A stretch of 32,000 nucleotides of DNA from Candidatus Heimdallarchaeota archaeon (GCA_030614005.1 JAUWKS010000021.1:1-32000), one strand, 5' to 3'; shown: positions 16,066 to 22,598, counted from the stretch's first letter. Notes: a model not told the origin generated them from the letters alone. Made by a program: numbers and translations.

Positions 16066-16506
16066 TCATTCTACTACTAAAACTGATATATCTACTCCAG
16101 ATATCCCTTCTATGGTCATAATATCTTTCTTTAATGCCTCTATATCGATTCTATCAAATTCTTCTGCATCAATGTAGCCATCAAATACACACGTATCTTC
16201 TAGAAAACACAAGCCAGTTGAATAAAGCGCTTTTAGACCTAAAGTTAAAAATATGTTACCAATTCTCTTTAGAAAATCAGGAGTTAACTGTCCTATATCA
16301 ATTGCTATTTTATACACCTTACTTGTCGTAGTAGGAATAATACGAATAATCTTGGTATTTGGTGTCAGTATAATTACAGCATAATTTCCAATCTCTGGTT
16401 TAAGTGCTTCAAGAAAATCAGCACTAAGTTGTAAAGATTTTTCTGACTCGAGTTTAAACATGCGCGCCATTGTTATTTGAAGGATTTCGTCTTTTTTCTT
16501 GACCAT
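16066..16506 (-). CDS. AbrB-like/ACT-like protein with YSTGLC motif (paralog of 10191..10604)
   Basis: Contains 'LYSTGLCFLEDTCVFDGYI' and has the same length and layout as its paralog. Confidence 0.55.
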   Translation of the reverse strand: MVKKKDEILQITMARMFKLESEKSLQLSADFLEALKPEIGNYAVIILTPNTKIIRIIPTTTSKVYKIAIDIGQLTPDFLKRIGNIFLTLGLKALYSTGLCFLEDTCVFDGYIDAEEFDRIDIEALKKDIMTIEGISGVDISVLVVE

Positions 16507-16643: not shown

Positions 16644-17627
16644 TCAAACACTTTGAACAATTTTTGGAGCACTGGCTACTTTAAAATTGTAAAAAGCCCA
16701 TTTTTTCGATGCAAGTACAGAGGTTACTTTGTTTGCATATTCTTTTAGTGTAGCAATTGTTATCAAATTCCCACCACCAATAAGGAAATATGCAGGTATG
16801 CCATCTTTCCTCATTTGATGGACATCATCACACAATTCTAACATCTTTGGTTTTCTTACAAACAATCCAACTTCTTCCAATAATTCATGTGCATTTCTAA
16901 TATTTCCTTCAGCAGCTTCAAGAACTTCAAGAAAATCTCTGTTATTCAAAGCAGTCTTTATCCGATTTACCCAAATCGGTATATCCTGAACACGTTTCTC
17001 AAAATTCCGATTTGTTATTATCCCTGCATGTATCTCATCAGCGGTTATTCGTGTATCAAAATGGAATGGAACAGAAAAAAGATTAATTTCTTCCAAATCG
17101 GAATGGGAAGCTAATTGCAAGACAGTTGGTGGAGAAGTATTAGCAAGTGTTAGAGTTAAACCACCGAATAAACTTCGACCGGCACTTTCTGACCCTCGCA
17201 TAGAATATTCTAATAATTGCTCTTGACTGTAATTTAAATCCAAAATATCATTAAGAGCAGTAAAAAGAGCAGCCAAACCCGAATCAGAGCTTCCACTAAA
17301 AATGTTATAATTTGTTGAATTAACTAAAAGATTTGCAGTGATATTACTATTCAACATAAAGGATTTAATTGCTAGCACGATTTGTTCTCCACGCAAGCCT
17401 GTTAGTTCTTTTCCCCCAAGCATAAATTTCACATATGGTGTTTCACGTGTTGGAGGAAGTTGATTGTCAGGAATAATTTCAACAGAGGTTTCCGTACGAG
17501 TAATTTCATCATGACTTGTCACTGCAAGGCCCATTGTATCGTAGATCGGTGTTCTATCAGAATTGATTCCACCGAGGAAAATAATTGGTATCGTAGGATA
17601 AGCTACAGCAACAGATTTTTTCTTCAT
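16644..17627 (-). CDS. Mevalonate-3-kinase-like GHMP protein (decarboxylase fold lacking the decarboxylation residues)
   Basis: 'AYPTIPIIFLGGI...RTP', 'NYNIFSGSSDSG', 'SESAGRSLFGGLT' and 'YFLIGGGN' match Thermoplasma mevalonate-3-kinase motifs as I recall them. ORF opens at 17663; I prefer ATG 17627. Confidence 0.8.
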   Translation of the reverse strand: MKKKSVAVAYPTIPIIFLGGINSDRTPIYDTMGLAVTSHDEITRTETSVEIIPDNQLPPTRETPYVKFMLGGKELTGLRGEQIVLAIKSFMLNSNITANLLVNSTNYNIFSGSSDSGLAALFTALNDILDLNYSQEQLLEYSMRGSESAGRSLFGGLTLTLANTSPPTVLQLASHSDLEEINLFSVPFHFDTRITADEIHAGIITNRNFEKRVQDIPIWVNRIKTALNNRDFLEVLEAAEGNIRNAHELLEEVGLFVRKPKMLELCDDVHQMRKDGIPAYFLIGGGNLITIATLKEYANKVTSVLASKKWAFYNFKVASAPKIVQSV

Positions 17628-17659
17628 TTTCTTCACCCAACTAAGAAATATAAAAAAAT

Positions 17660-18547
17660 TCAATAACTTTTTCGTTCTAATTTCAACTTTTCAATATACT
17701 CAATTGACTTCTTATATTCCTTAATATCATTAATTTTTCTTATTCTTTCGAAAAGATAATCATATACTAAATCAAGTCCTTGTTGGAAATCATCAATATC
17801 AATGATTTTTAGATTATGTCTTTCAGCGTCCTCACATAGATATTTTTGCATCAAAAGATATTTATCCATTTGCTCAAGCAAACGCTCACTTGAACTTTGC
17901 AAATGGGAAAAAAGAGTTCTGGATTTTAATCGCTCAGAGTATACAGCACGATCTGTAATTCTTAGAATAATCGGAATAAAGCTTGGATGAGCTAATATTT
18001 GTTTGTCAAATTGTGAGGGTAAGAAGTGAAGATATTCAACAAGGATATTTTCTCCATCTCTAATACCCCTATCGGCAATCATTCGTTGGACTGCTTGGTT
18101 CATAGTTTGTGATTGCTTTTTGTAACCCAATAAAAGATTTTGTTCAGTATACTCACCAAAATGCTTCCATGAATTGTAAACACTGGTAAAGAATTCTTTA
18201 TTCTCATTGTATGGTAAAATACTTCGAAAAGAAGAACGAAGAGCATCCCCGCCTATTACTATGCCAATATCTAGCGCAGTTGAAATTTCTTTTGCCATAG
18301 ATGTTTTCCCCACACCAGGTAAACCTGCAACAACTAAGCATAAGGGAAGTTTTTGGATGCCTTTTCGTATTTGAGTCTTATATTCTTTCATCACATGGTA
18401 GCGTTGTAAATATTTTTCCCCGTGATTTTGCAAAGAAGAGAAGAGGTCATCCTCAGTAGAAGAATTGCAAATTATTTCGCTAATCTGTCGTAAAGATAAT
18501 CCTGTAGCTAATAATAATGAATCCTCATTCCGGAAAATCATAAGCAA
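17660..18547 (-). CDS. 2-phosphoglycerate-kinase-family P-loop kinase, mevalonate-3-phosphate-5-kinase-like
   Basis: Motifs 'AGLPGVGKTS', 'GGDALR', 'TSVYNSWKHFG', 'GENILVEYLHFLP' and 'SHLQSSSERL'. Lies directly upstream of the GHMP gene. Confidence 0.75.
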   Translation of the reverse strand: MLMIFRNEDSLLLATGLSLRQISEIICNSSTEDDLFSSLQNHGEKYLQRYHVMKEYKTQIRKGIQKLPLCLVVAGLPGVGKTSMAKEISTALDIGIVIGGDALRSSFRSILPYNENKEFFTSVYNSWKHFGEYTEQNLLLGYKKQSQTMNQAVQRMIADRGIRDGENILVEYLHFLPSQFDKQILAHPSFIPIILRITDRAVYSERLKSRTLFSHLQSSSERLLEQMDKYLLMQKYLCEDAERHNLKIIDIDDFQQGLDLVYDYLFERIRKINDIKEYKKSIEYIEKLKLERKSY

Positions 18548-21476: not shown

Positions 21477-22598
21477 TTAGACAGCTAAACTTAGCCAATC
21501 AGGAGAGATCCAACCCCACCCACTGTAACCAGCTAAAGCAAAGATACCCCACACACCAAAAGCAAGTATTAATCCTAAACCAATAGATAAGGGTAAACCA
21601 GGCATCATTTGAACCTTCTCAAGAAGTTTTATTGTACCAATTGCTCCAACAACTACACCAATAAAAGCTCCAATAGCTGAGAAGAAACCTAGCCTAATAA
21701 GAGCAAAACTAATGAGCATGCCAAAAAACGCAAGATCACCTAATCCCAATTCAATATAATCAGAATACTCATACTCAACCTCTGCTAGTGCAGTATCTAT
21801 ATTTGGTTCTGGAGTGTCAGATATATCTTCAACAGGAACGGTAATTTCGGATTCTTCTGTTTCACTTGTTGGGTTTGGAGTTGATAGATTCTTTTGATAT
21901 TTCTCATTTTCCCGTGCTTCACTTACTTCAGCAATTTTCTTAATTGGTCCTTTAAAAACTGAGATAATATCATATATGCTTAGCCCAATCATGATAAAAA
22001 CAGAAGCCAACATCGGTAGAAAAGTCGCTAGAAATGTTCCAGCTAAAACTGCGAAGAGCATTGCCATTACTTGAGATATTGGTTCTGCTGTCAACGTGTA
22101 AACCATTGAGACTACTGTAAAGATAGCATAAGCTAAACCAACAACAAGTGCAATTGAGATTATAACCCAGTCAGTTGAAACTTGGAAAACTCCTCCCGGT
22201 AAAAAGATATCAAGGAAGAAATAAGGAGTACTATAAACTAAAAGAAAGACAAAGAAAAACGATGTAACTGCAATGGCAACTGCAAAGAAAGCTTTCAATA
22301 GTTTGATCTTTCCATACTTGAAAATTAAGAAAATCACAAAAGCTCCAATAAAAGCTATTCCAACATAAAATAATGCATTTAATGCAGCAGCACCTGGAGT
22401 ATCACCTGGTACTGGTGTTGCCGGAGGAGGTCCACCACCACCACTTGCATCTGAATTAAAATAACCAAGAATGATTATGCTGCACAAGCCACTTAATACA
22501 GATATAATCATAATAGGAATTGATAATGAGATAAATTTCTTTTTAATGGTCACACTAAATGTTCCCAATTGACTGGCATAACCCATTTTTAGTACCAA
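21477..22598 (-). CDS. Presenilin-family (A22) intramembrane aspartyl protease
   Basis: About 9 hydrophobic segments, with 'IYDIISVFKGPIKKIAE' (YD), 'ELGLGDLAFF' (GxGD) and 'MPGLPLSI' (PAL-like). A long acidic loop separates the catalytic helices. Confidence 0.92.
   Translation of the reverse strand: MVLKMGYASQLGTFSVTIKKKFISLSIPIMIISVLSGLCSIIILGYFNSDASGGGGPPPATPVPGDTPGAAALNALFYVGIAFIGAFVIFLIFKYGKIKLLKAFFAVAIAVTSFFFVFLLVYSTPYFFLDIFLPGGVFQVSTDWVIISIALVVGLAYAIFTVVSMVYTLTAEPISQVMAMLFAVLAGTFLATFLPMLASVFIMIGLSIYDIISVFKGPIKKIAEVSEARENEKYQKNLSTPNPTSETEESEITVPVEDISDTPEPNIDTALAEVEYEYSDYIELGLGDLAFFGMLISFALIRLGFFSAIGAFIGVVVGAIGTIKLLEKVQMMPGLPLSIGLGLILAFGVWGIFALAGYSGWGWISPDWLSLAV

Follow-up and report, generated by a model that had tools for sequence, protein, structure and literature searches.

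Which reaction is catalysed by a protein that has the fold of a mevalonate-pathway decarboxylase and lacks the residues that drive decarboxylation, and to which pathway could such a protein belong? The question is raised by a reverse-strand gene at positions 16644–17627 of the window, by which we mean the whole 32,000-nucleotide stretch of Candidatus Heimdallarchaeota DNA that was analysed. The gene runs from an ATG at 17627 to a stop codon at 16644 and encodes a 327-residue protein, P0001. The window corresponds to one contig (C67) of a 3.6-Mb assembly that comprises 126 contigs, has a G+C content of 32% and is rated 90% complete. The nearest public relatives of P0001 are 89–90% identical to it and come from MAGs labelled Candidatus Heimdallarchaeota, and the protein of the JABLTI01 record (L018) is 62% identical. 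Close homologues are named ‘mevalonate pyrophosphate decarboxylase’, ‘Diphosphomeva...’, ‘mevalonate-3-kinase’ or ‘hypothetical protein’, depending on the source, and members of the clade are accordingly called decarboxylase, M3K (mevalonate 3-kinase) or hypothetical protein across databases. The original prediction, which took P0001 for a 3-kinase, had expected automated annotation to call it a decarboxylase; this holds for some sources, as it does for one Thermoplasmataceae protein of the M3K clade that is named ‘diphosphomevalonate decarboxylase’, but other sources use the kinase name or no functional name at all.

We took ATG 17627 as the start of P0001 because a Shine-Dalgarno-like GGGTGA (17638–17633) lies 5 nt ahead of it and because the resulting N-terminus agrees with the consensus MKKxSxAVAYPT that is common to the P0001 homologues in the alignment. 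A longer reading frame starting from TTG 17663 was rejected, as it overlaps the stop codon of the upstream gene and disagrees with the N-termini of the homologues. The GGGTGA element is located in a spacer of 32 nt (17628–17659, reverse strand) that separates the P0001 gene from a P-loop kinase gene (17660–18547, reverse strand), the 295-residue product of which, P0002, has mevalonate-3-phosphate 5-kinase (M3P5K) as its top family. The two genes are probably co-transcribed.

The active site of P0001 was examined in a column alignment of 238 homologues that consisted of 144 M3K-like proteins and 94 decarboxylases. The three motifs on which the original prediction had been built, IIFLGG (residues 15–20), SESAGRS (146–152) and FLIGGGN (281–287), were all found where it had placed them. 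Its pairing of these motifs with those of decarboxylases was off by one residue, in that IKYWGK pairs with IFLGGI and the catalytic Asp with G284, but the loss of the decarboxylase Lys/Asp pair stands, as neither stretch holds any Lys, Asp or Glu. The first Lys of IKYWGK is present in 87 of the 94 decarboxylases and in none of the 144 M3K-like proteins; its position is occupied by F17 in P0001, and that of the second Lys by I21. The catalytic Asp is distributed in the same manner (88/94 decarboxylases, 0/144 M3K-like proteins), with G284 replacing it in P0001 and a Thr in the Thermoplasmatales M3Ks. A pairwise HMMER alignment to 4rkp, a structure of the Thermoplasma acidophilum M3K, moves the Asp position to I283 instead of G284; neither alignment puts a Lys or an Asp at the catalytic positions of P0001. 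The column of E147 contains Glu in 143 of the 144 M3K-like proteins and in none of the 94 decarboxylases, which mostly have Gly there, and the column of R193 contains Arg in 143 of the 144 M3K-like proteins. R151, the Arg of the catalytic triad, is invariant and retained in P0001, as is the ATP loop, which reads SGSSDSG. When the 19-residue tag of chain 4rkp_A is subtracted, E147 corresponds to E140, R193 to R185 and I283/G284 to T275/G276 (the counterparts of E147 and R193 being found at chain positions 159 and 204, respectively), which bears out the earlier equation of the SESAGRS Glu with E140 of the T. acidophilum enzyme. Work by Vinokur from 2015 reportedly assigns to E140 the role of excluding 5-phosphorylated substrate.

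An Asp, a Lys and an Arg constitute the triad that is needed for decarboxylation (PMC5177888, PMC9254496), of which the Asp is a conserved residue of DMD, PMD and MBD that M3K does not share (PMC9254496). The Sulfolobus solfataricus DMD (SsoDMD) in which this Asp is replaced (Asp-to-Thr/Val) behaves as a pure 3-kinase, and R185 is essential in the T. acidophilum M3K (PMC9254496). P0001 lacks both the Asp and the Lys by which DMD, PMD and MBD eliminate phosphate and would therefore not be expected to decarboxylate its product.

A search of NCBIfam models gave mevalonate-3-kinase (NF040848) as the best family of P0001 with 147.6 bits, compared to 69.6 bits for PMD and 57.4 bits for DMD. The score remains below the equivalog cut-off of 440 bits set for this model, which was built on Thermoplasmatales; the Thermoplasmatales-type protein P0121, a member of the same M3K-like clade, clears it with 545 bits. 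The Pfam domains MVD-like_N (54.3 bits) and M3K_C (45.6 bits) both exceed their cut-off of 27. In a sequence search of the PDB, the T. acidophilum M3K Ta1305 was matched with an E value of 2e-21 and DMDs with values of ~1e-9. The AF2 model of P0001 (pLDDT 96.9) retrieved Ta1305 chains (4rkz/4rkp) as its top four Foldseek matches with TM scores of 0.87–0.91, with DMD and PMD structures close behind. In a maximum likelihood tree, 49 M3K-like proteins are separated from 21 DMD/PMD/MBD-like proteins with an SH-aLRT support of 100. Within the M3K-like clade, Thermoplasmatales constitute one subclade and P0001 belongs to another, made of Asgard and DPANN sequences, for which our literature searches found no assayed member. 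The Thermoplasmatales-type proteins in this comparison, such as P0121 and P0141 (labelled Thermoplasmataceae), came from protein searches; the locus set described below is without the Ta1305 and PTO1356 loci.

Considering (i) the residue columns, (ii) the family and structure matches, (iii) the position in the tree and (iv) the M3P5K-like neighbour, which together support the 3-kinase assignment made in the original prediction, we infer from sequence, a predicted structure and gene context that P0001 is quite probably a mevalonate 3-kinase. It is also likely, with slightly less confidence, to be an orthologue-level relative of the Thermoplasma M3K that does not decarboxylate and is paired with an M3P5K-like kinase. 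With the M3Ks of Thermoplasmatales (Ta1305, PDB 4RKP/4RKS/4RKZ; PTO1356; EC 2.7.1.185), P0001 shares the DMD-like GHMP fold, the superclade, the loss of the decarboxylase Lys and Asp, the Glu of SESxGRS, the equivalent of Arg185 and the shortened ATP loop SGSSDxG. It differs from Ta1305 in that the two are only ~23–29% identical and belong to separate subclades, and in that Gly/Ile replaces Thr at the Asp position. Furthermore, the P0001 gene adjoins that of its M3P5K-like partner, whereas the locus tags of Ta1305 and Ta0762 place these genes apart from each other in T. acidophilum, and its host is not an acidophile of the order Thermoplasmatales and is without MBD and IPK. The low identity to Ta1305, the score far under the equivalog cut-off and the missing MBD and IPK, of which the original prediction took no account, count against the 3-kinase reading. 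With DMD/MVD (S. epidermidis, 4DU7; S. solfataricus, 5GMD), P0001 has in common a homologous fold, the carboxylate-binding Arg (R151) and the half-reaction in which the 3-OH is phosphorylated; unlike P0001, DMD possesses the Lys and the Asp, binds the 5-diphosphate and eliminates the 3-phosphate with decarboxylation.

The neighbouring P-loop kinase bears on the same question. P0002 matches the M3P5K family NF008996 best (134.6 bits, under the cut-off of 250), with 2-phosphoglycerate kinase as the runner-up at 111 bits. To place the pair in context, we used a set of 40 related Asgard and DPANN loci that had been fetched by their M3K-like protein. The M3K-like and M3P5K-like genes adjoin in 33 of these 40 loci, in the order M3P5K-M3K in all Asgard loci that have both genes on the contig and in the order M3K-M3P5K in DPANN, and throughout the set the neighbours of the M3K-like gene are always mevalonate-pathway genes. 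Among 82 genomes of the class, the M3K-like gene is found in all 11 genomes of a single genus and in no others, and P-loop kinases that score at least 135 bits on the M3P5K model are confined to that genus and a fragmented sister genome (G081). In two loci from related Aenigmatarchaeota MAGs (L023, 6962–7793; L024, 5739–6763; both on the forward strand), the M3P5K-like gene is split in two ORFs, owing to either a frameshift or an assembly error; it is whole in L026 and L027.

What becomes of mevalonate in this Heimdall genus further downstream can be derived from its gene content. HMG-CoA reductase is encoded in nine of the 11 genomes, therefore mevalonate is made. IPK (NF040647) exceeds its cut-off in none of the 12 genomes of the family, where the best match of 45 bits is a UMP kinase; the same model yields 199–222 bits in DPANN genomes that have MBD-type clusters. 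No MBD was found in the genome or genus, the sole other MVD-family gene being a canonical DMD, and profile searches found no AcnX, no animal-type PMK and no PMK above the model cut-off. Because the genome is 90% complete, these absences lean mainly on the agreement among 11–12 related MAGs. The DMD gene (motifs IKYWGK and TIDTGAN) is located on another contig of the assembly directly upstream of the sole MVK/PMK-family kinase gene (G000 contig C21; L001, 31–2013, reverse strand). Its product scores 309.6 bits with TIGR01240 and 69 bits with the MBD model NF040847, and displays the diphosphate determinants KYWGK and Met, with its ATP loop intact and the Lys/Asp/Arg set complete. The adjacent C21 kinase looks like an MVK: its score with the MVK model, 197.5 bits, is over the cut-off and compares to about 50–66 bits with PMK models, its best PDB matches are all MVKs, and it carries the MVK-type motif APGKxILFGEHA. 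PMC11052028, however, reads it as PMK-type, which goes against these HMM and PDB results.

Two further GHMP kinases of 360 residues, encoded on contigs C71 and C123, were considered as MVK or PMK and set aside, as they carry the galactokinase motif GEHxDY and score best as galactokinases. An amino-acid-kinase-family protein (C16, 4328–5017, forward strand; L010, 1471–2160) scores 96.7 bits as MfnE, below the cut-off, and 39.8 bits as IPK. Among the proteins of that fold in the genome, no other could conceivably serve as a hidden phosphate-to-diphosphate kinase; its reading as a hidden IPK was not adopted and is kept as a less likely one, as genes for a methanopterin-type cofactor (beta-RFAP synthase) are present and the DMD is of the diphosphate type.

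The DPANN loci contain the same upper pair in two types of cluster. Type 1 combines the M3K-like and M3P5K-like genes with that of an MBD/PMD-like decarboxylase, and the IPK gene is often in or near the cluster. In type 2, the two genes are joined by those of a DMD and a GHMP kinase, all four being co-directional and overlapping or nearly so. The type-2 DMDs are 46–55% identical to the C21 DMD and the type-2 kinases are 38–47% identical to the C21 kinase; the Heimdall genus thus carries a type-2 gene set that is split over two contigs. A whole-genome check identified IPK in five of five type-1 genomes and an MVK-family kinase in none of them. Each of the five type-2 genomes has one match to the MVK model, which is over the cut-off and coincides with the cluster kinase in four genomes, and in the fifth scores 57 bits and is located on another contig; a borderline IPK is present in one of the five.

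The decarboxylases of the two types were compared at the positions that determine mono- or diphosphate specificity, using the N20K/H194M PMD mutant (entry 6n0z) as a reference. Type-1 decarboxylases lack the second Lys, have His and possess a degenerate ATP loop; type-2 decarboxylases, like the C21 DMD, have KYWGK, Met and an intact ATP loop. The type of the decarboxylase thus co-varies with the last kinase of the cluster, and the sole cluster in which a DMD-like gene is accompanied by IPK has His at the specificity position. This intermediate cluster, found in a Micrarchaeota MAG (L053, 7675–9565, forward strand), comprises M3K-like, M3P5K-like and DMD-like (KYWGR and His) genes with IPK directly downstream. 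The two cluster types are interleaved in phylogeny: the M3K tree shows six or more switches and the P-loop kinase tree four or more. The genomes underlying both switch and cluster counts are related and do not constitute independent samples. At one recent switch, identity amounts to 91% between the M3K-like proteins and to 56% between the P-loop kinases; the faster divergence of the latter may signal a changed specificity. In type-2 clusters, the M3K-like gene is always kept beside that of the P-loop kinase with its catalytic residues invariant, and these clusters include those of DPANN genomes of 0.7–1.1 Mb.

The predicted enzyme set of type 1 matches the Thermoplasma route of M3K, M3P5K, MBD and IPK. 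As type-1 genomes have no MVK-family kinase, the M3K-like enzyme is their only candidate for entry into phosphorylated mevalonate. Type-2 clusters employ M3K-like proteins that are nearly identical to those of type 1, and the most economical reading is that the enzyme keeps its type-1 function in type 2 and in the Heimdall genus.

We tentatively propose the following model for the Heimdall genus. P0001 would phosphorylate the 3-OH of free (R)-mevalonate with ATP and release mevalonate 3-phosphate without decarboxylating it. P0002 would then turn mevalonate 3-phosphate into mevalonate 3,5-bisphosphate, which would be raised to the 3-phospho-5-diphosphate either by the MVK-family kinase encoded beside the DMD or by the P-loop kinase. 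From this compound, the C21 DMD would make IPP, performing only or mainly the elimination/decarboxylation half of its usual reaction. The assignment of the last step to DMD appears most likely because the genus, without MBD and IPK, has only a diphosphate-type DMD and one MVK-family kinase, and for the same reasons, the end product would be IPP that is reached via a 5-diphosphate. Such a mixed route, with phosphorylation at positions 3 and 5 preceding the formation of IPP via a diphosphate intermediate and DMD, is a possibility suggested by gene content and residue patterns. Were it correct, the M3K-like/M3P5K-like pair might supply the upper half of a mevalonate route that is so far undescribed, would be the fifth of its kind and is present in Heimdall-group Asgard archaea and several DPANN lineages; the lower halves could conceivably have been exchanged repeatedly under a conserved upper half; and the mixed and Thermoplasma (MBD, IPK) routes would perhaps be related to each other in the way that the classical (PMK, DMD) and haloarchaeal (PMD, IPK) routes are. 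What speaks for this model is that the M3K-like gene has been kept everywhere with its catalytic residues intact, even in the genomes of 0.7–1.1 Mb. Against it counts the intact ATP site of the DMD, which could itself phosphorylate the 3-OH, so that a separate 3-kinase would look redundant.

The same ATP site and the MVK-like C21 kinase, which likewise counts against the mixed route, favour the strongest competing explanation, a classical route in which the P-loop kinase serves as PMK. The C21 kinase would be mevalonate 5-kinase, P0002 a non-GHMP phosphomevalonate kinase and the DMD a normal, ATP-dependent one, with P0001 a spare M3K-like enzyme whose side, salvage or regulatory role lies apart from the main flux. 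The kinase passes the MVK cut-off, carries the MVK motif and matches only MVK structures, the DMD retains all kinase and ATP-binding residues, other PMK candidates are absent from the genome, and a marked divergence of the P-loop kinase accompanies the change of the lower half of the pathway. A spare role is at odds with the presence of the M3K-like gene, with its catalytic residues invariant, beside the P-loop kinase in every type-2 cluster, small DPANN genomes included. It is also at odds with the sister clusters that have MBD and IPK and lack MVK, as there the same two proteins must be M3K and M3P5K, and with the near-identity of M3K-like proteins across the change of cluster type. Moreover, we know of no P-loop kinase of the P0002 family that phosphorylates a phosphomonoester. 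On balance, we consider this explanation rather unlikely and less probable than the mixed route.

Considerably less probable is that P0001 is a 3-kinase for a different substrate, such as mevalonate 5-phosphate, the 5-diphosphate or another 3-hydroxy acid. Its distance from the assayed enzymes and its separate subclade would allow for this, the Picrophilus M3K is weakly active on other 3-hydroxy acids (PMC4357925), and the MVK-like kinase of the genome could supply mevalonate 5-phosphate. However, Glu147 does not vary within the M3K-like clade, none of the enzymes that bind 5-phosphorylated mevalonate possesses it, the Lys positions with which DMD binds the (di)phosphate are hydrophobic in P0001, and the neighbouring genes belong without exception to the mevalonate pathway. 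Finally, that P0001 is itself a decarboxylase (DMD, PMD or MBD), as the shared fold, the shared Pfam domain MVD-like_N and the name ‘mevalonate pyrophosphate decarboxylase’ given to homologues in some sources could suggest, is highly improbable, because the Asp that is conserved in these enzymes, and the replacement of which abolishes decarboxylation (PMC9254496), is absent together with the Lys, because P0001 falls outside the decarboxylase clade with 100% support, and because a canonical DMD is encoded elsewhere in the genome.

Read as a mevalonate 3-kinase, P0001 adds a member to a known family that had already been reported from this lineage. When first described, the M3K route was taken for an adaptation to acid that only Thermoplasmatales possess (PMC5177888). 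Homologues of M3K and MBD were noted in Micrarchaeota in 2018 (PMC6107057), and homologues of M3K, M3PK and ‘MBD’ were reported in 2024, on the basis of phylogeny only, in Heimdallarchaeia o__JABLTI01, Aenigmatarchaeota and others (PMC11052028); the same paper remarks that those MAGs also carry ‘PMK’ and DMD. Where that paper has MBD homologues present, we find a single DMD-type decarboxylase, IPK in 0 of 12 genomes and a four-gene cluster in DPANN that alternates with the MBD/IPK cluster. In the literature searched, PMC11052028 included, we found no description of the genus-wide absence of IPK and true MBD, of the four-gene DPANN cluster or of the co-variation of the decarboxylase with the last kinase. 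The occurrence of the M3K-like/M3P5K-like pair in non-acidophilic Asgard and DPANN archaea extends the report of PMC11052028 and weakens the view of the M3K route as an acid adaptation. The synthesis of the isoprenoid units of archaeal membrane lipids and the origin of the eukaryote-type mevalonate pathway are open questions to which Heimdall-group Asgard archaea are central. By the logic of gene content described here, one upper pair combines with MBD and IPK in some genomes and with a diphosphate-type DMD and an MVK-family kinase in others. If the latter combination works, it would constitute a new pathway variant and a living intermediate between the ‘split’ and ‘fused’ designs of kinase and decarboxylase.

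Several further observations were made in the course of this work. In a cluster from a Candidatus Iainarchaeum MAG (L030, 7811–8752, forward strand), the third gene encodes a second M3K-like paralogue in place of a decarboxylase; the paralogue was also encountered as P0131. Both the Glu that is otherwise invariant in the clade and Asp115 are Ala in this paralogue (ASASSPRS, SGSSASG), which, like other M3K-like proteins, has neither Lys nor Asp at the triad positions of decarboxylases; it may act as a 3-kinase on a phosphorylated substrate or have lost its activity.

Downstream of the P0001 gene, at a distance of 137 nt and on the same strand, the window contains an ORF of 146 codons (16066–16506, reverse strand) with no Pfam match. 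It is kept in place, at 61–84% identity, in every Asgard locus whose contig reaches past the M3K-like gene, and none was found in the DPANN clusters. The surrounding genes for TPI, uS19 and a DUF460-like protein are also syntenic; since synteny thus extends over a wider region, the conservation of this ORF may reflect the lineage alone. At 21477–22598 (reverse strand), the window encodes a membrane protein of 373 residues that matches Pfam Presenilin with 63 bits, over the cut-off, and is an archaeal homologue of presenilin/signal-peptide-peptidase.
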